Sequence record: OQ988004.1
Reading direction: 5' to 3' (one strand)
DNA length: 47,806 bases
Origin: Mycobacteroides phage 8UZL
Shown: positions 10,897-18,361 of the stretch, piece by piece
How the letters are laid out: every line of letters begins with the position of its first letter
Numbering within the stretch: the stretch's first letter is position 1
Position numbers and translations under genes: made by a program
The notes under the pieces: model-generated
The model's database searches: none
Told to the model about the DNA's origin: nothing
What the model saw: the letters and a program-made list of their open reading frames with translations, nothing else

Positions 10897-11351
10897 CGAC
10901 GGTGGAATCCCAAATTCCCTGGACCCCATCAGATGACGAGTTCGACGGCTTGTGGGATTCCACACAGCCGGACAACGTCCCAGATATCCTGAGCACGATG
11001 TTTGCTCAGCAGCTCAAGCATATGCAGGCCTACGCCCAGATCAATGAGGACGCTCAGCTGCCGCCAGAAAAATGGGGCGACCTCGATTCTCGGCGGACGC
11101 AGGCCTCGCTGCGAGAGTTCGCCTCGTACACCGTGGAGGAACTGTACGAAGCAATCAATAACCTGAAGAACAAGCCCTGGAAGCAGACCATGCGGGAGAC
11201 CGACCGGGACAAGTTCTTCGAGGAACTCGCTGATGCCTGGCACTTCTTCATCGAGTTCCATATTCTCGCCGGCATCAATCCGACCGACGTGTTCAAGCAC
11301 TACTTCAGGAAGTCGCTCGTCAACGAACAGCGGCAGATCAACGGGTACTGA
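10893..11351 (+). CDS. MazG-like nucleoside triphosphate pyrophosphohydrolase
   Basis: All-alpha NTP-PPase motifs TVEELYEAI ... FFEELADAWHFFIEF (EExxE ... EELxD). Start ATG overlaps the kinase stop (ATGA). Confidence 0.7.
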   Translation: MTTVESQIPWTPSDDEFDGLWDSTQPDNVPDILSTMFAQQLKHMQAYAQINEDAQLPPEKWGDLDSRRTQASLREFASYTVEELYEAINNLKNKPWKQTMRETDRDKFFEELADAWHFFIEFHILAGINPTDVFKHYFRKSLVNEQRQINGY

Positions 11352-12244
11352 TGCACCACTACACGCGGGGAACGATGACGGAGCTTCACGAGGAGCTCTG
11401 TGCAGATATGCTGTACAGCCATGCCAAGGAGTATGACTGGATCAGCGGTACCGATGTCATCAAGACCAACGTGTTCGCTGAGGCCGAGACCATGGAGTGG
11501 GAGTGCGATCTCTCCCGCTTCTGGCTCGCCGGCACGCGATGGACGAAGATGATTAACCAGTACCTCGACCCTGACGCTGTACGGGAATGGCTCGACCTCA
11601 TCGAGGGCCGCACCAGCAAGAAGAACGCCAACCGGATGATCTTGCGCACCAACACCGTCCAGCCTCGACGAGGAGGACGAGTGACAACGCGAGCACTCGG
11701 CAGTTGCATGCTGTCCCTGTCGTTTGCCCTCGAGCCACACCCGCAGATCCTGCTGCACTCGAGGACGGGCTACATGGGCTATCTCAGCGTGCTCGACTGG
11801 TCAGTCGCGTATCACGTCGGTCGGCTCGCTGCGGAGCGTCTGGGCCTGGATATCGCTGCCTTCCGCTTCGTGTGGTTCGCTGAGTCGATCCAGTACCATT
11901 GCTTCCGCACAATTGCCTACCCCCTTGGTCTGGAAAGTGAGCGTAAGCTATTCACCTCGCGATGCCGCGAGCTTGTGAAGGAGGGTAAGCTCGAGGACTA
12001 TCCTGCCCTGCATAGAAACTGGAAGCAGTACACGAAGTGGCTGCAGGCGGACAAGGAAGGCCTGACATATGATGAGCTTTCTACTTACCGTTCGTCTCAA
12101 CGTCCGCGGAAGAGATTCCATAGTCAAGTACGAGGTATTGACTACGCGAGTCAGTTTACAGACCCTGGCGACAAACCATTCTCTGTACTTCCCTCCGTTG
12201 ACGTCAAATCCCTTACACTTGATAAACTGGGTCTGGAGGCTTAA
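11351..12244 (+). CDS. thymidylate synthase (ThyA)-fold protein, highly divergent paralog 1
   Basis: Segments align to the ThyA core by hand: NANRMILRTNTV vs DSRRIIVSAWNV, ALGSCM vs ALAPCH (Cys retained), GLDIAAF vs DLEVGDF. Confidence 0.55.
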   Translation: MHHYTRGTMTELHEELCADMLYSHAKEYDWISGTDVIKTNVFAEAETMEWECDLSRFWLAGTRWTKMINQYLDPDAVREWLDLIEGRTSKKNANRMILRTNTVQPRRGGRVTTRALGSCMLSLSFALEPHPQILLHSRTGYMGYLSVLDWSVAYHVGRLAAERLGLDIAAFRFVWFAESIQYHCFRTIAYPLGLESERKLFTSRCRELVKEGKLEDYPALHRNWKQYTKWLQADKEGLTYDELSTYRSSQRPRKRFHSQVRGIDYASQFTDPGDKPFSVLPSVDVKSLTLDKLGLEA

Positions 12245-12246
12245 TC

Positions 12247-13020
12247 GTGCTTCATCTGGTCAATCCCACTCGCGACGTTCTGGCCGAGCAATTGCTATCA
12301 CGGAGTATCACGTGCAGAGAGTCCTGGCAGAGCACGTCCGCCCCCTCTCCTGTCCGCGAGATCCCGAACGTGATTCTGGAACTACCCGATATCTCGAGTT
12401 CAGTACAGCACCTGATAGACCTGACTCAGCCCGACCTTCCATGGGCCGAGGAACACTTCCTCGAGCGGGTGTCGGGTATTCCGCACAATCCTCCCCCCTC
12501 CTATGCACGATGGCCGTGGCACAGCCAGAAATCCAGAGATACTTTCTTAACGAGTGGAGGGAATCAGAGATTTGACCATACCTATCCCGAACGGTTTTGG
12601 CCGCAAGAAGGCTGGTGGGCAGGACAAGACCAGAGCGGCTGGGGAGATCTACGAGACGTGGTGGAACTCCTACGAAAAGATCCATGGACCCGCCAAGCAT
12701 ACCTTCCTGTCTGGTTTCCGGAAGACACTGGCACGACTCTTGGGCAGAGAGTCCCGTGCACCCTCGGATACCACTTCATTCGCAACGGACTCAAGCTGGA
12801 TTGTAATTACTTCCTACGTAGTTGCGACTTCACCCGTCATCTGCACAACGACCTATATCTTGCCGGTCGCTTGCTCCAGTGGATGGTGGACCAGACTCGA
12901 AAGGAGGATTTTCCCTTTACCGGGTCACTCACGGTATTCATTTCTAACCTTCACCTATTCACCGCGGACGAATGGCGTTTTGGTGGGGGAGGACCTCATA
13001 ACGATGGAGGAGCTCGATGA
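12247..13020 (+). CDS. thymidylate synthase / dNMP hydroxymethylase-family protein, paralog 2
   Basis: Clear ThyA signature blocks: LRKDPWTRQAYLPVWFP, RVPCTLGYHF (catalytic Cys), LDCNYFLRSCDF, ISNLHLF. Confidence 0.7.
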   Translation: MLHLVNPTRDVLAEQLLSRSITCRESWQSTSAPSPVREIPNVILELPDISSSVQHLIDLTQPDLPWAEEHFLERVSGIPHNPPPSYARWPWHSQKSRDTFLTSGGNQRFDHTYPERFWPQEGWWAGQDQSGWGDLRDVVELLRKDPWTRQAYLPVWFPEDTGTTLGQRVPCTLGYHFIRNGLKLDCNYFLRSCDFTRHLHNDLYLAGRLLQWMVDQTRKEDFPFTGSLTVFISNLHLFTADEWRFGGGGPHNDGGAR

Positions 13021-13559
13021 CCGAACGTCCCACACGCCATGACATGCTGCTGAGCATGGCGTTCCTCGTAGCGCAACGAGCGACCTGTACGCGGCTCAGT
13101 GTGGGCGCTGTGGCGTCCATAGACGGCCGTATCTTGTCGACCGGGTACAACGGCGCGCCAATCGGTATGCAGCACTGCACGCATCCTCCTGGGGAGCCCT
13201 GCACGCGCTCGGTACATGCCGAGGCGAACGCCGTTGCCTTCGCGGCCCGTCACGGGGTCTCGCTGCTGAACTCTGACTTCTACTGCACTGACTCTCCCTG
13301 CTACACCTGCGCCTGCCTTCTGGTGAACGTGGGGATCAAGTCGCTGTTCTTCAATCGGGAATACCGAGACCCCGCCGGGGTCCGGCTACTCAATGATGTC
13401 GGCATTAATGTGTATCGTCTGCACAATGATGAGACGCCGGCAGACAACTACTGGAGCGCTCTAGCCGATGAAAATAGTGGTTCTTACCAAGTTCGTTCTC
13501 CGCGGTTCTTTACGGGAAGAAATGATCCGCCGCGTGAAGAGCCAGGGCTTCCGGGATGA
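13017..13559 (+). CDS. dCMP deaminase
   Basis: Zn-binding HAEANA and PCYTCA (PCxxC) motifs of the cytidine/deoxycytidylate deaminase family. Confidence 0.85.
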   Translation: MTERPTRHDMLLSMAFLVAQRATCTRLSVGAVASIDGRILSTGYNGAPIGMQHCTHPPGEPCTRSVHAEANAVAFAARHGVSLLNSDFYCTDSPCYTCACLLVNVGIKSLFFNREYRDPAGVRLLNDVGINVYRLHNDETPADNYWSALADENSGSYQVRSPRFFTGRNDPPREEPGLPG

Positions 13560-15879
13560 CGATCTGATCTTCATGGGCTGCGCGCCGTCGCAATACGACG
13601 GTGAGTTCTCTAAGGCAGACCTGAAAGAGTTGCGTGCCACTTTCCAGGAGAATGTCCTACAGCACCATGCAGACGCCATTCTCGCCCTTGGTAATGAGGC
13701 TCTCTTCATCACCACAGGACACAGCGGCATTATGAAGTGGCGCGGTCGAGCACAGGACCAGGTGATCCCGCTTCATCCTGACCTCCTCGTCATGCCGACC
13801 ATTGCCCTTGGTGCTATCGACCGCAACCCGTCACAGATTCAACTGCTGTACGCTGACATTCGAGCGCTCCACACCGAGCTATACGGCAGTGAAGACAAGC
13901 AGGTCAAGCCGAGCAAGGTCCACATCATCAAGGACGAGAAATCGCTCGAGCAGTTCGGTGTGGCAACGAAGACAGCGAAGGCGGTTGCATATGATCTGGA
14001 AACTTCTGGATTTAATGAGCTCGAGGATGGCGCGTTCATCGTCTCTGCAGCATTCTCTCTCCTCGATGAGGATGGCACGATGTCCTGCTGGGCTCTTCCA
14101 CTCTCCCATCCCCGGTCTCCATGTCGATCCAATTGGGACAGCATTCTTCGCCGTGCTACCGACGCTTGTAAGCGGGTACCTGTGCGGGTTGCTCACAATG
14201 CAAAGTTTGATTGTCGCTGGCTGGTTCAGTTTGGAGCACCTCTACCTTGCAACTTTGATACTATGCTGGCAGCTCATATCCTTGACGAGAACCGATTTAA
14301 GGGTCTTAAACCCCTATCACAGATGCTGCTGAACGCGCCGGCATGGGACATTGACATCAAGGGCGGCAAGAATGCTGAGCCCTGGTACATGCAGCATACT
14401 CTCCGGGAGATTCTTCAGTACAATGCACTGGACACCTGGCATACTCTTCGGCTATATCGTCTATTCAGTTCTGAGCTTCGCTCTGATCCTCGGCTGGAAC
14501 GACTCTTTGAAAAGCTCATCATGCCGGCTTCTCAGAGTCTCGTACACATTGAGCGAAGAGGCGTTTATGTGCATCGAGAGAAACTTGATGAAGGTGCTAA
14601 GCTGGTCGAGGAAAAGCTCCAGGAGATTCACGATGGCCTTATGGAGTATGTGCCGGAAGGGGTGACCGATGTCAACTTCAACCCTTCCAACTTCCTTCGC
14701 TGGTTCCTCTACGATCACCTCGATCTACCTGTGCTCAAGGAAGGCAAAACAGGTCCCAGCGTCGCTGAGACGGTCCTCACTCAACTCGCCGCGACAAATC
14801 CACACCCCGCTGTCGATCTACTGGTCGAGCGGGTCAAGTGGCAGAAGTTCCAGTCGTCCTTCTTCAACCCTTACCGGGAGCTGATTACCGATGATTCCCG
14901 TCTCCATACGACGTTCAAGCTGGCCGGGACAGTTACGGGTCGATTGTCTTCTGGGAAGGCAGACTCAGATAAAGTTACTGGTTCTAAAGCGTCATCTGTG
15001 CGAGGTATCAATCTACAACAGGTTCCTCGGGATCCACTTGTACGCAGCATATTCGGTGCTCCCCCGGGTTGGTCTTTTGTGGAGGCTGACTACTCGCAGA
15101 TCGAGTTACGGGTGGCAGCTGAGATCTCGGGCGAACCGACCCTCAAACAGCTCTACATAAACGGGGAAGACGTTCACATGGCTATGGCCATGAGGATGAC
15201 CGGGAAGCCTGCTTCTCAGGTGACCAAGGAAGAGCGCAAGAAAGCGAAGGCAGTGAACTTCGGATTCTTGTATGGGATGGGATGGAAGAAGTTCATTGAA
15301 ACTGCCTGGAATAATTACGGACTACGTGTCTCTCCTGAGGAAGCTCAAGCTGCTCGAGGAGCCTTCTTCGGACAGTTCCCCGAACTGCTCAAGTGGCATG
15401 CACGACAGCGACGACTCGCCCACCGGAACTCCCGAGTGCAATCCCCCTTGGGTCGCATCCGCCACCTGCCGGATATCAAATCTCCCGAGTCCGGTGTCGT
15501 CGCTGAAGCTGAACGTCAATCTATTAATTCCCCGGTCCAGGCGTTCGCGAGCGATCTGTGCCTTCTCAGTCTCGTCCTCCTCGACCGACGCTTCCGTCGA
15601 GATAAGCTCGCAGCCAGTCCTATTGGGACTGTCCACGACGCAATCAACTTCGAAGTCCGGAACGATCACCTCCCGATGGTCTTACCAACCATCAAACGAG
15701 TTATGGAGAATCCGCCACTCGGTCCACTCTTCGACTTCGTTCCCGGAATACCCATCGTTGCTGACATCAAGGTGGGTGACTCCTGGGGTGGAGCTGATGA
15801 GATTCCTGGACACCTGGTACACGAACCGGACGCGCTCGAAGCTTGGCTTAACGAGAGAGGACTCCTAGATGCCGCTTGA
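13468..15879 (+). CDS. DNA polymerase I (family A) with 3-5 exonuclease and an N-terminal UDG family-4-like domain
   Basis: Exo motifs YDLETSG and HNAKFD. Pol motifs RRLAHRNSRVQSPLGRI, KAVNFGFLYG and TVHDAINFEV. The N-terminal ~110 aa resemble family-4 UDG (FMGCAPS ... LALGNEAL ... HPD). The start may be 13522 instead, because 13468 overlaps the deaminase gene by 92 nt. Confidence 0.9.
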   Translation: MKIVVLTKFVLRGSLREEMIRRVKSQGFRDDDLIFMGCAPSQYDGEFSKADLKELRATFQENVLQHHADAILALGNEALFITTGHSGIMKWRGRAQDQVIPLHPDLLVMPTIALGAIDRNPSQIQLLYADIRALHTELYGSEDKQVKPSKVHIIKDEKSLEQFGVATKTAKAVAYDLETSGFNELEDGAFIVSAAFSLLDEDGTMSCWALPLSHPRSPCRSNWDSILRRATDACKRVPVRVAHNAKFDCRWLVQFGAPLPCNFDTMLAAHILDENRFKGLKPLSQMLLNAPAWDIDIKGGKNAEPWYMQHTLREILQYNALDTWHTLRLYRLFSSELRSDPRLERLFEKLIMPASQSLVHIERRGVYVHREKLDEGAKLVEEKLQEIHDGLMEYVPEGVTDVNFNPSNFLRWFLYDHLDLPVLKEGKTGPSVAETVLTQLAATNPHPAVDLLVERVKWQKFQSSFFNPYRELITDDSRLHTTFKLAGTVTGRLSSGKADSDKVTGSKASSVRGINLQQVPRDPLVRSIFGAPPGWSFVEADYSQIELRVAAEISGEPTLKQLYINGEDVHMAMAMRMTGKPASQVTKEERKKAKAVNFGFLYGMGWKKFIETAWNNYGLRVSPEEAQAARGAFFGQFPELLKWHARQRRLAHRNSRVQSPLGRIRHLPDIKSPESGVVAEAERQSINSPVQAFASDLCLLSLVLLDRRFRRDKLAASPIGTVHDAINFEVRNDHLPMVLPTIKRVMENPPLGPLFDFVPGIPIVADIKVGDSWGGADEIPGHLVHEPDALEAWLNERGLLDAA

Positions 15880-16885: not shown

Positions 16886-17727
16886 CCCGACCCATTCGCC
16901 GCAACGTGCGAGCACAGACGACACCGGGGAAGGATTACGCCGCGATTGCGGCCAGTAAGATCACGTCCCCGTCCAAGCTTGCCGAGAAGAACGGTCAGAT
17001 GAGACCCCCTCGGATCCTCGTCTATGCCCGCAACAAGAAGGGCAAGACACGCTTCACGATGTCTGCCGGCAAGGGCAAGATCCTGATCGTTGACCCAGAA
17101 CGCGGAACTGATCGCTTCATCAAGGCCGATCCTGCTGTGTGGCATTTTGAGGCCTGGGAAGAGATGGAGGATATCTACCAGTTCCTTCGCTCGGGCAAAC
17201 ACAACTACGAGTGGGTGGCGCTTGACGGTCTCACCAAGATCTCAACCATGGCGCTGCGATACATCACTCGGAATGCCGAAGAAGCCGACCTCACGCGCCG
17301 CCCAGGGCTCGTTAAGCTGCAGGACCGAGGCAACGCCGGCGAGCTGGTCAAGACGATGCTCGACAAATTCCACACGCTGGACATGGGCATCATCTACACC
17401 GCGCAGGAGCGGCAGGTAGAAGCGAACTTCGATGACGAAGAAGACGAGGAGTTCGAGGGCGGGTCCATCCAGTATGTCCCAGACTTGCCCAAGGGCATCC
17501 GTGCGGCCGTCAACGGTATTGTGGACGTTGTAGGCCGTCTGTACACCGTGAAAGTACCCGGAGAGGAAGGAACCGATGTAGTCCGACGCCGCCTGTGGCT
17601 GGCCCCATCCGTGTCCTATGACACCGGCGCCCGATCAGAATACAAACTCCCCGATTACCTGGAGAGCCCAACCGTTCCCCGACTGGTGGGACTAATGGAA
17701 GGAAAGAAAGTAAGTGGCAACAAGTAA
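16882..17727 (+). CDS. RecA-fold ATPase (Sak4/AAA_24-like recombination protein)
   Basis: Walker A-like ILVYARNKKGKTRF, Walker B WVALDGL, acidic internal stretch. It lies between a nuclease and an SSB-like gene. Confidence 0.55.
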   Translation: MTRPIRRNVRAQTTPGKDYAAIAASKITSPSKLAEKNGQMRPPRILVYARNKKGKTRFTMSAGKGKILIVDPERGTDRFIKADPAVWHFEAWEEMEDIYQFLRSGKHNYEWVALDGLTKISTMALRYITRNAEEADLTRRPGLVKLQDRGNAGELVKTMLDKFHTLDMGIIYTAQERQVEANFDDEEDEEFEGGSIQYVPDLPKGIRAAVNGIVDVVGRLYTVKVPGEEGTDVVRRRLWLAPSVSYDTGARSEYKLPDYLESPTVPRLVGLMEGKKVSGNK

Positions 17728-18361
17728 GGCAAAAGCCGAGATCATCGACTTCTCCAACGTCAAGGAGCGCGGGAACTACCAGCCCAAGCACGTGGCGGCC
17801 GGCGATTACCGGGGGAAGATCACCAAGGTGGTGGACGATCCGGCCAAGGACGGCACGAAGATGTGGACGTTCACCATCGAGTCCCCGGAGATTCCTCGTG
17901 CAACCTACCCGTACTACTGCAAGCTCGCCGAGAACCAGTTCTTCAAGTTGAAGTCCTTGTTCGAGGCTGCCGGCACGTCGGTGGGCAAGCGCAAGGTGAA
18001 GGTCGACCCCAACCGTCTGATCGGCAAGGAGATCGGCTTCGCGCTCGAAGACGACGAGTACGAGGGTCGGATGAAGTCCGTCATCGTTGAGGTGTTCCCG
18101 GCCAGCGAGGTCGGCGATGCGCCGGAGGACGACGAGGAAGAGGACGAGGACCTCGAGCCCGACGCGGACGACGAGGAAGAGGAAGAAGCCGAGGAGGAGC
18201 CGGAGGAAGACGCCGAGGAGGAAGAGGAAGAAGAGCCCGAGCCCCCGAAGCGTCGGAAGGCGCCGGCGAAGAAGGCTCCTACCAAGCGTGCTGCCAAGAA
18301 GGCGGCTGTCGAGGACGAGGAAGAAGAGAACCTCGAAGACCTCGACATTGACGAGCTGTAA
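17714..18361 (+). CDS. putative ssDNA-binding protein with a long acidic tail
   Basis: GTG start. ~130-aa globular N-domain, then a poly-Asp/Glu tract, a KAPAKKAPTKRAAKK stretch, and a terminal EDLDIDEL. Confidence 0.4.
   Translation: MATSKAKAEIIDFSNVKERGNYQPKHVAAGDYRGKITKVVDDPAKDGTKMWTFTIESPEIPRATYPYYCKLAENQFFKLKSLFEAAGTSVGKRKVKVDPNRLIGKEIGFALEDDEYEGRMKSVIVEVFPASEVGDAPEDDEEEDEDLEPDADDEEEEEAEEEPEEDAEEEEEEEPEPPKRRKAPAKKAPTKRAAKKAAVEDEEEENLEDLDIDEL

Follow-up and report, generated by a model that had tools for sequence, protein, structure and literature searches.

The window analysed, a stretch of 47,806 nt, derives from the genome of a Mapvirus mycobacteriophage of the Muddy/FF47 type and encodes a DNA polymerase (PolA) 99.5% identical to the PolA of FF47/Maco2. 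The polymerase gene, the deaminase gene that it overlaps and the domains of the polymerase were located as follows.

13017..13559, plus strand: dCMP deaminase gene (Pfam PF00383, E 3.7e-18; PHROG dCMP deaminase)
13468..15879, plus strand: PolA gene from the list of open reading frames, 803 aa and stop, with UDG4-like N-domain, 3'-5' exonuclease and family A polymerase
13468..13470, plus strand: true PolA start, ATG; an in-frame TAG precedes it by two codons and GGAG by 11 nt
13468..13887, plus strand: degenerate UDG-family-4-like N-domain, residues 1-140 (hhalign, AF2, Foldseek and PF03167 homologues)
13921..14478, plus strand: 3'-5' proofreading exonuclease, residues 152-337 (Pfam PF01612, E 8.6e-17; DxE at D176/E178)
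14578..15789, plus strand: family A polymerase domain, residues 371-774 (Pfam PF00476, E 4.6e-80)

All of the PolA motifs were found, namely DxE (D176/E178), DYSQIELR (541), KAVNFGFLYG (594) and VHDA (722), and the best structural matches of the polymerase domain were Klenow and Bst. A UDG-fold domain lies N-terminal to exonuclease and family A polymerase within one polypeptide, followed by a low-confidence linker at residues ~141-150. Among UDG-PolA enzymes, the PolA of this Mapvirus phage falls in a separate actinophage lineage. A literature search on the FF47/Muddy polymerase gave nothing specific.

The start codon was assessed since the preliminary description had left it ambiguous between 13468, 13522 and 13573, the last of which would have left its motif-A region untranslated. 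As it had stated, the earliest start overlaps the deaminase reading frame (13017-13559) by 92 nt; the last 30 codons of the deaminase overlap PolA codons 1-31 in a different frame. In the PolA frame, codons 2-22 carried 11 synonymous and four non-synonymous changes relative to phage NoShow, while the deaminase frame over the 92 nt overlap carried one and 19, respectively. The deaminase tail is unconserved, with one synonymous against 19-22 non-synonymous codon changes. Met1 was invariant in the clade alignment, and in Gordonia phages the equivalent Met is annotated as the PolA start, with an ATGA overlap with the deaminase. The in-frame upstream stop and the purifying selection from codon 2 onwards show that PolA is translated from ATG 13468. 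The candidates at 13522 (ATG, with GGGAAG just upstream), 13534 (GTG, as in the Muddy record) and 13573 were ruled out by the codon-position evidence and the conservation of residues 1-22. GenBank records conflict on this point, the annotated start lying at codon 23 in Muddy, codon 11 in NoShow and codon 19 in JacoRen57; all three remove the first beta-strand of the N-domain, and in none of these records is the UDG-like domain annotated.

PolA lies directly downstream of a cassette encoding dCMP deaminase, a thymidylate synthase (TS)-like protein, a MazG-type dUTPase and TMP kinase. The proximity to pyrimidine genes described previously was borne out, and the same synteny was found in relatives from Gordonia, Streptomyces, Microbacterium and Curtobacterium phages. 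Throughout the lineage PolA always follows directly on a dCMP deaminase and a rare TS-like gene. The TS-like gene encodes a strongly divergent protein (Pfam E 1.3e-6, with PCT replacing PCH), and one distant relative is annotated 'pyrimidine hmase'. A 'QueC-like' label among the tail genes of FF47 looks dubious.

Relationship of the N-domain to UDG4 was not detectable by direct sequence searches. Residues 1-160 gave no UDG match in Pfam (E<=1) or NCBIfam (E<=10) and only chance matches (E>=0.1) in the PDB by phmmer. An HMM built from the clade alone placed UDG4 chains among its top six PDB sequences at a non-significant E of 0.27-0.3. The check for a UDG-family match was therefore negative at this level and positive by profile-profile comparison, in which the clade-only profile matched the canonical UDG4 profile with a probability of 97.6% and E 2.7e-12 (hhalign); a wider profile matched the UDG4 structures 1L9G, 1VK2, 1UI0 and 4ZBX at ~1e-22. 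A phmmer search of 1.84 billion representatives with residues 1-160 returned 32 matches, mostly proteins combining UDG (PF03167), exonuclease and PolA. Recovery of homologues required an alignment query or an exhaustive HMMER scan, as a word-indexed search with the single domain yielded two proteins only.

Structure prediction gave the same answer. The AF2 model of the N-domain (pLDDT 89, pTM 0.81) has the alpha/beta/alpha UDG fold with a predicted four-stranded parallel beta-sheet (strands 3-9, 33-39, 70-74 and 107-111), and its best 36 Foldseek matches in the PDB were all UDG4/UdgX, with TMq ~0.7. The alignment used for this domain-only model included canonical UDG4s, which may have biased the fold; a full-length model for which only PolA homologues were supplied reproduced the secondary structure of the N-domain. 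The kinship to UDG4 draws its significance from the profile-profile, transitive (through graded homologues) and structural evidence. From alignment and modelling, the ~140 residues preceding the exonuclease and polymerase are identified as a shrunken relic apparently derived from UDG family 4.

The UDG motifs were mapped onto the N-domain and the mapping was checked by three independent alignments. The relevant positions are listed below.

13483..13503, plus strand: motif-A equivalent LTKFVLR, residues 6-12 (alignments), GEAPG replaced and the next 10 residues deleted
13570..13590, plus strand: FMGCAPS, residues 35-41, beta-2 strand (alignments), equivalent to UDG4 'TNxVKCRPP', which carries the Asn and one Fe-S Cys
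13681..13746, plus strand: conserved core LALGNEALFITTGHSGIMKWRG, residues 72-93, beta-3, helix and loop (conservation over 38 homologues)
13765..13782, plus strand: clade-specific insertion IPLHPD, residues 100-105, holding HPD at 103-105 (insert in hhalign)
13798..13830, plus strand: motif-B equivalent TIALGAIDRNP, residues 111-121, with His replaced by Ala113, Pro by Leu114, and Arg119-Asn120-Pro121 kept

The preliminary description had proposed a UDG4-like domain with substituted catalytic motifs, reading FMGCAPS as motif A and HPD as motif B. The UDG4 derivation and the loss of the canonical catalytic Glu stood, and both motif assignments proved wrong. Motif A, GE(A/G)PG, aligns to L6-T-K-F9 followed by the 10-residue deletion, placing Lys8 at the position of the catalytic Glu. 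FMGCAPS corresponds instead to the strand that bears the Asn and an Fe-S Cys; the uracil-contacting Asn of 'TN(A/V)V' is Gly37 here and Gly or Ser in the lineage, and Cys38 is unconserved within the clade. HPD falls in an insertion of 5-6 residues that is missing in the close relatives NoShow and P0001 and in Gordonia phages. The true motif B, HPS(S/A)(L/V)(L/V)R, read as T-Y-H-P-A-A-V-L-R-N-P, aligns with T111-I-A-L-G-A-I-D-R-N-P121, in which the uracil-contacting His is Ala113 and the Arg is retained as Arg119. UdgX residues E52, N91, H178 and R184 accordingly correspond to PolA K8, G37, A113 and R119; in UdgX, N91 contacts uracil and R184 binds the DNA backbone (PMC10359453). The PFVG segment of the UDG4/UdgX pocket is shortened. 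The four Cys ligands of the [4Fe-4S] cluster have all been lost: the CxxC segment is absent and residues 1-150 contain one Cys only (C38), so the cluster cannot form. The Glu, stacking segment, Asn and His of the canonical pocket were missing in all 118 of the 118 PolA homologues examined. By alignment, the N-domain lacks every residue predicted to be needed for recognising or excising uracil.

These losses bear on whether the domain might still act as a glycosylase by means of unusual catalytic residues such as E77 or a His of the clade. UDG families do allow some motif variation, a type-II-like domain of YerA41 (GYVN/MYSLM) is reported to be active, and N76-E77 is conserved; against this, the Asn, the His, the motif-A loop and the Fe-S cluster have all been lost together, and the HPD lies within a non-conserved insertion. 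Retained glycosylase activity is thus considered extremely unlikely.

Homologues of intermediate similarity were ordered by identity. Those of 820-870 aa, which are 47-54% identical over the full length and carry Pfam PF03167, keep all four Cys residues together with the Pfam UDG match and have already lost GEAPG and the His. Homologues of at most 813 aa at 55-100% identity, Mapvirus PolA included, have neither the CxxC segment nor the remaining Fe-S Cys, with the exception of one aligned Cys in two sequences of the motif table. The series is compatible with a stepwise decay of a fused UDG4 in which catalysis would have been lost first and the Fe-S cluster and N-terminal segment later, with the few residues of the DNA face (GNE, RG and RNP) staying invariant, and these graded relatives show in what order the UDG features disappeared.

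What has been kept is confined to a few blocks. The conserved core (residues 72-93) aligns to the UDG4 'LG..A....I..RG' region, and the LALGNEAL block within it (residues 72-79, nt 13681-13704), pointed out previously, is real; no other block of the domain is as well conserved among >100 homologues. Over 38 full-length homologues G75, E77 and P121 were invariant, and N76, L79, G84, S86, G87, I88, R92, G93, R119, N120 and D130 were at least 90% conserved. Purifying selection acts on the alpha/beta core, on the DNA-backbone Arg of motif B (R119-N-P) and on the G75-N-E...G-I-M-K-W-R92-G block. The strongly conserved N76-E77 pair could hint at unrecognised chemistry, which would speak against a non-catalytic role.

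The domain might alternatively be a structural vestige, kept only for the folding or stability of the exonuclease and polymerase and with no DNA role of its own. It evolves faster than the rest of PolA (27-66% identity to relatives, against 49-73% for the full-length protein), and the progressive loss of the Fe-S cluster and the N-terminal segment along the lineage is in keeping with this explanation. However, even among relatives with as little as 49% full-length identity, GNE...RG and the R-N-P of the DNA-intercalation loop vary little or not at all, which exceeds what packing alone predicts, and a pure vestige is therefore unlikely.

Comparison was made with three groups of UDG-fold proteins and with the closest relatives. 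The stand-alone UDG4/UdgX enzymes (1UI0, 1L9G, 4ZBX and 6AJO) share the alpha/beta fold of the modelled N-domain (TMq ~0.7), and the motif-B Arg (UdgX R184, here R119), the 'LG..A' strand-helix junction and the '..RG' loop have been kept from them. Unlike these enzymes, the Mapvirus N-domain is fused to a polymerase, is ~45-60 residues shorter and lacks GE(A/G)PG, the Asn, the His and the [4Fe-4S] cluster. The closest detectable UDG-bearing relatives are degenerate UDG-PolAs from Microbacterium, Streptomyces and Curtobacterium phages and from metagenomes (among them Triscuit gp70, P0005 and P0221). The metagenomic proteins are 47-54% identical to Mapvirus PolA over the full length, and the Triscuit-type model is ~40% identical. 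These relatives share the GNEAL...GIMKxRG and RNP motifs with Mapvirus PolA, have likewise lost GEAPG and the His, and also have a dCMP deaminase immediately upstream; they differ in keeping an N-terminal CxxC segment of ~40-50 residues and the other two Cys, so that an Fe-S cluster is probably still bound, and their UDG domain is still recognised by Pfam.

In N4-like PolA an inactive UDG domain lies between the exonuclease and polymerase domains, and a role in processivity has been proposed (PMC10201439, PMC3201878). Like Mapvirus PolA, the N4-like UDG-PolAs (cluster #17; Czernecki et al. 2023, NAR, PMC10201439) have a UDG4-derived N-domain with catalytic residues replaced or deleted. Both have an intact 3'-5' exonuclease and a UDG domain for which a built-in structural or processivity role is proposed, and in both Pfam misses the UDG domain. 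Membership of Mapvirus PolA in cluster #17 was ruled out, as the BLASTP match to N4 gp39 (22% identity) was restricted to the polymerase domain and left the N-domain unaligned. The Mapvirus lineage, unlike the N4-like cluster, infects Actinobacteria, and its decay differs: the Mapvirus clade has lost the CxxC segment and Fe-S cluster, whereas in the N4-like domain a short helix and a beta-hairpin are reported to be missing. Thermus phage G20c PolI (7R0K) gave a long Foldseek alignment and was rejected as a UDG-PolA comparator, as its paper mentions no UDG domain.

The SP15-like polymerases (SPO1 gp31) have the same UDG-exonuclease-polymerase architecture as Mapvirus PolA, and their genomes likewise encode a deaminase, a dUTPase and a TS homologue. 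Their UDG domain contacts the 5' template single strand ahead of the polymerase site (bioRxiv 10.1101/2025.03.26.645540). By analogy with that location at the template entry, the Mapvirus N-domain probably occupies the same place. In the SP15-like enzymes motifs A and B are intact and template dU is excised, whereas the Mapvirus N-domain lacks the catalytic and pocket residues; the SP15-like proteins are also larger (1175-1306 aa, with large inserts and a C-terminal domain, against 803 aa), and several SP15-like phages have hypermodified thymidine. The cryo-EM entries of these enzymes (9QHS and related) were found neither by the PDB sequence searches nor among the 50 Foldseek PDB matches listed.

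The full-length model had a pTM of 0.86, in keeping with a rigid connection of the N-domain to the remainder of the enzyme, and a pLDDT of ~90 in the N-domain. It matched an 890 aa Triscuit-type UDG-PolA model from BFVD (40% identical) with TMq 0.87 over the whole length, and Klenow, which has no UDG domain, with TMq only ~0.65. From the pTM and the whole-length TM-scores we infer a modelled position of the N-domain relative to the fingers and exonuclease. These data, with the analogy to the N4-like and SP15-like polymerases and the identity of the conserved residues, suggest that the N-domain is a non-catalytic structural or template-DNA-handling module, a reading to which a probability of ~0.6 is given. 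Such a domain would neither excise nor specifically read uracil. It would pack against the exonuclease and fingers as a built-in module and may keep the incoming 5' single-stranded template in place, or direct it, before it reaches the active site, which could aid processivity or strand displacement.

The domain could instead be a protein-docking platform for a replisome partner, in the manner of the poxvirus UDG (D4/E4) that bridges polymerase and processivity factor. The poxvirus protein is a non-catalytic subunit of the processivity complex (as cited in PMC3201878 and bioRxiv 10.1101/2025.03.26.645540), and an SP15-like UDG-PolA serves as a recruitment platform for PolX. Possible partners encoded downstream include a helicase, a Cas4/RecB-like exonuclease, a Sak4-type annealase and a 215 aa SSB-like protein with a long acidic C-terminal tail (17714-18361). 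The conserved residues, however, lie on the face that binds DNA in UDG4 (the Arg of motif B and the loop that follows beta-3), and no novel conserved surface was identified, making docking an unlikely function.

The preliminary description had suggested a modified-base reader or, alternatively, a domain that prevents excision of a U-derived base, and a dead UDG might still flip out and sense a template uracil or modified pyrimidine so as to stall, signal or protect the base. The adjacent deaminase, TS-like, dUTPase and TMP kinase genes with their conserved synteny, the 'pyrimidine hmase' label on a relative of the divergent TS-like protein, and the reading of dU ahead of the fork by active UDG-PolAs, several from phages with modified thymidine, are consistent with this. 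The idea was left without a structural basis, because Lys8, a shortened PFVG segment, Gly37 and Ala113 replace the pocket, every UDG4/UdgX element of which is substituted or deleted. Moreover, a search of the FF47 and Muddy annotation found no hypermodification enzymes, the cassette is equally explicable as raising dTTP supply, and modified DNA in these phages was not met in a limited literature search that was not aimed at that question. Base reading is accordingly judged distinctly improbable.

Less probable again is that this mini-UDG serves as a silent template-strand sensor or clamp with a functional link to some unrecognised pathway of pyrimidine metabolism, such as one in which the divergent TS-like enzyme and an unknown 297 aa partner would produce a non-canonical thymidine. 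If that were true, the Muddy-type therapeutic phages would replicate chemically unusual DNA.

Muddy-type phages have been used therapeutically against Mycobacterium abscessus, and getting the gene model and the domains of their replicase right is therefore of practical value. A UDG-PolA with an inactive UDG has already been published for the N4-like phages (PMC10201439), and the Mapvirus lineage is an independent further example; as such polymerases are known from other phages, it represents a new example and not a new mechanism. The small Fe-S-free version found here would be convenient for testing a non-enzymatic role, and the retention of a dead UDG in a second lineage strengthens the view that the UDG fold may have a non-enzymatic role in phage replisomes.

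The 47.8-kb window holds essentially the entire genome of a cluster AB mycobacteriophage (Mapvirus). Its 803-residue PolA shared 99.5% identity with DNA polymerase I of FF47 and of Maco2 and 98.4% with the Muddy enzyme, with 100% identity to Maco7 across residues 1–160. Both the DxE motif of the exonuclease and motifs A, B and C of the polymerase are preserved in full, while residues 1–150 received no Pfam assignment. The motif 'TGRLSS-(x)-PNLQNIP' is usually contiguous in family A polymerases; here it is split by an insertion of ∼14 residues, SGKADSDKVTGSKASSVRG, which is conserved in sequence throughout the PolA lineage, yet is predicted to be disordered (pLDDT < 50).

Features of PolA and its neighbourhood (nucleotide coordinates, strand, description)
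11351–12244, +, 297-aa ORF flanked by the MazG-type dUTPase and TS-like genes
12247–13020, +, TS-like gene
13017–13559, +, dCMP deaminase
13468–15879, +, PolA
PolA residues 152–337, 3′-5′ exonuclease (Pfam)
PolA residues 371–774, family A polymerase (Pfam)
14926–14988, +, PolA residues 487–507, region of the insertion
17714–18361, +, 215-aa protein with an acidic C-terminus

Four lines of evidence, a phmmer scan, a gradient among homologues, profile–profile comparison and the predicted fold, establish that the N-terminal domain of PolA (N-domain, residues 1–140) is related to UDG family 4 (UDG4). Searched alone, the N-domain returned no matches in Pfam (E ≤ 1) or NCBIfam and only chance matches among PDB sequences, and an HMM from the close clade alone placed two UDG4 chains in the top six PDB matches with E of only ∼0.3. 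When 1.84 billion representatives were scanned exhaustively with phmmer, 32 proteins were recovered, and the majority of the non-repetitive ones combined PF03167 (UDG) with exonuclease and PolA. Full-length PolA homologues at 55–100% identity (about 780–813 aa) had no Pfam UDG match; those at 47–54% identity were ∼40–50 residues longer and had one. Alignment by hhalign of the clade-only profile with a profile of ten stand-alone UDG4s gave a probability of 97.6% (E 2.7e-12, residues 13–147), and a wider profile matched the UDG4 structures 1L9G, 1VK2, 1UI0 and 4ZBX at ∼1e-22 and UdgX at ∼1e-15. An AlphaFold2 model of residues 1–160, made from an alignment that included canonical UDG4s, has a four-stranded alpha/beta core (pLDDT 89, pTM 0.81), and all 36 significant Foldseek matches in the PDB were UDG4 or UdgX (TMq ∼0.7). 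The secondary structure of the N-domain was unchanged (pLDDT ∼90) in a full-length model whose alignment was limited to PolA homologues (overall pLDDT 89.6, pTM 0.86). The UDG-like domain of the preliminary description, including its central block, is real, its significance coming from profile–profile alignment, transitive matches and structure prediction where direct searches were negative.

The motifs lie elsewhere than first described. Three mutually consistent alignments placed motif A (GEAPG) at residues 6–12 (LTKFVLR, nt 13483–13503), where Glu is replaced by Lys8 and the 10 residues after the motif ('..xxEDxxGx') are deleted. FMGCAPS (residues 35–41), previously read as motif A, falls on the UDG4 strand 'TNxVKCRPP', with the uracil-contacting Asn replaced by Gly37; Cys38 is unconserved, even among Mapvirus relatives. 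HPD (residues 103–105), earlier taken for motif B, sits inside a short insertion, IPLHPD, which is absent from NoShow, P0001 and all Gordonia phages, and motif B (T-Y-H-P-A-A-V-L-R-N-P) corresponds to T111-I-A-L-G-A-I-D-R-N-P121, with Ala113 at the His position. Mutational and structural work on UdgX assigned E52, N91 and H178 to the catalytic/uracil pocket and R184 to DNA backbone binding (PMC10359453). Their counterparts here are K8, G37, A113 and R119, which means that the pocket has been lost and the backbone-binding Arg retained. The family 4 [4Fe-4S] cluster cannot form, because residues 1–150 hold a single Cys. Neither the canonical uracil pocket nor the Fe-S cluster is usable by the N-domain, and with pocket, motif-A loop and cluster all gone, a cryptic glycosylase is scarcely credible. 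Of the earlier interpretation, the UDG4 origin of the domain and the loss of its catalytic Glu stand; a non-excising base reader is very unlikely, since every pocket residue is lost and no modification genes are annotated in FF47 or Muddy.

GEAPG and the motif-B His were found in 0 of 118 full-length PolA homologues, and two Streptomyces-phage-type sequences carry a His one position further on. All four Cys are kept in the 820–870-aa relatives. Homologues of ≤813 aa, including that of the window, have no CxxC segment and have lost the other Fe-S Cys positions, with the exception of one aligned Cys in two sequences. This motif table therefore gives an order of decay in which catalysis was lost before the Fe-S cluster and N-terminal segment; the N-domain is a UDG4 relic. 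Across 38 homologues G75, E77 and P121 are invariant and N76, L79, G84, S86, G87, I88, R92, G93, R119, N120 and D130 are ≥90% conserved. That the N-domain persists as a pure structural vestige is quite unlikely, as DNA-face residues are conserved.

The start codon had been considered ambiguous but is not, and two observations identify it as ATG 13468: a TAG two codons upstream rules out any earlier start, and there is a synonymous excess in codons 2–22. Against NoShow, these codons contain 4, 3 and 14 differences at codon positions 1, 2 and 3 (11 synonymous and 4 non-synonymous codon changes); against JacoRen57 there were 12 synonymous and 6 non-synonymous changes. The 92-nt overlap read in the deaminase frame has 1 synonymous versus 19–22 non-synonymous changes. 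A GTG preceded by GAGGAG occupies the position of ATG 13468 in NoShow and JacoRen57, and the equivalent Met is annotated in Gordonia relatives, in an ATGA overlap with the deaminase stop. The N-domain is translated and under purifying selection. The first, central beta-strand of the AlphaFold2 fold comprises residues 3–9; the GenBank PolA start of FF47 is equivalent to 13468, and those of Muddy (GTG codon 23), NoShow (codon 11) and JacoRen57 (codon 19) would, according to the model, remove this strand. Gene models are inconsistent across GenBank records KF024728.2, ON108645.1 and MK279840.1, and the dCMP deaminase is labelled 'hypothetical protein' in Muddy and the Maco phages. Its last 30 codons, which overlap PolA, have no protein-level conservation and are apparently a read-through tail under no selection.

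The TS-like gene upstream is very divergent (Pfam PF00303, E 1.3e-6; best PDB ThyA match, E 5e-5), and its catalytic Cys is present in PCT, where ThyA has PCH. The family comprises 177 phage records only, largely from actinophage groups carrying this PolA lineage but also from some Pseudomonas, Xanthomonas, Serratia and Clostridium phages; one distant match is annotated 'pyrimidine hmase'. Among the loci compared, from Gordonia, Streptomyces, Microbacterium and Curtobacterium phages, several of the Gordonia ones have a lysin B gene separating the TS-like gene from the deaminase. The 297-aa ORF matched solely phrog_13667 (unknown function), with no match in Pfam or PDB searches; NoShow and Gordonia phage Gibbous have a similar-sized hypothetical protein at this position, and the ORF may belong to the pyrimidine cassette as a partner not yet characterised. 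Downstream, the 215-aa protein has a C-terminal third that is extremely acidic and ends in DLDIDEL, a tail resembling that of T7 gp2.5-type ssDNA-binding proteins; the RefSeq label of its orthologue FF47_40, 'DNA polymerase', looks wrong, and the Muddy label is hypothetical. FF47_16 (FF47 locus L015, 9920–10525), a 201-aa ORF labelled 'QueC-like queuosine biosynthesis' in RefSeq, is flanked by the genes for the major tail protein and the tail assembly chaperones, so this label is probably a mis-annotation; the window equivalent is also among tail genes, in the opposite strand orientation.

N-terminal UDG domains have been noted in the SPO1 and T5 PolAs, where they were suggested to act as intrinsic processivity factors (PMC3201878). 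Czernecki et al. 2023 (PMC10201439) described N4-like PolAs (cluster #17) as fusions to a UDG4 domain in which the catalytic residues are not conserved; in all UDG-PolA models they placed the UDG domain between the exonuclease and polymerase domains, and for its inactive versions they suggested a function in processivity. In cryo-EM structures of SP15-like PolAs an active UDG domain touches the 5′ template strand and dU is excised five nucleotides ahead of the polymerase site; these phages also carry deaminase, dUTPase and TS-homologue genes (Missoury et al. 2025). Membership of the N4-like group was rejected for the window PolA, whose identity to N4 gp39 is just 22% and restricted to the polymerase domain. 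Its full-length model matched Klenow and Bst over residues ∼150–803 only (TMq ∼0.65). With a BFVD model of a phage PolA of 890 aa the match was end to end (TMq 0.87, 40% identity); 890 aa is also the length of the PolA of Microbacterium phage Triscuit, an enzyme with a Pfam UDG match at its N-terminus. From the model, the N-domain is predicted to form one rigid unit with the remainder of PolA. Its use as a platform for docking other proteins is unlikely. We favour, with a probability of roughly 0.6, a non-catalytic role for the N-domain, structural or in DNA handling, at the template entry, a position that we infer; it would act there through the backbone-binding loop that it has kept (R119-N-P) and through the GNE...RG loops. 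The window PolA is a previously unannotated member of the UDG-PolAs, a known kind, and its relic is Fe-S-free and more reduced than in the relatives examined here.
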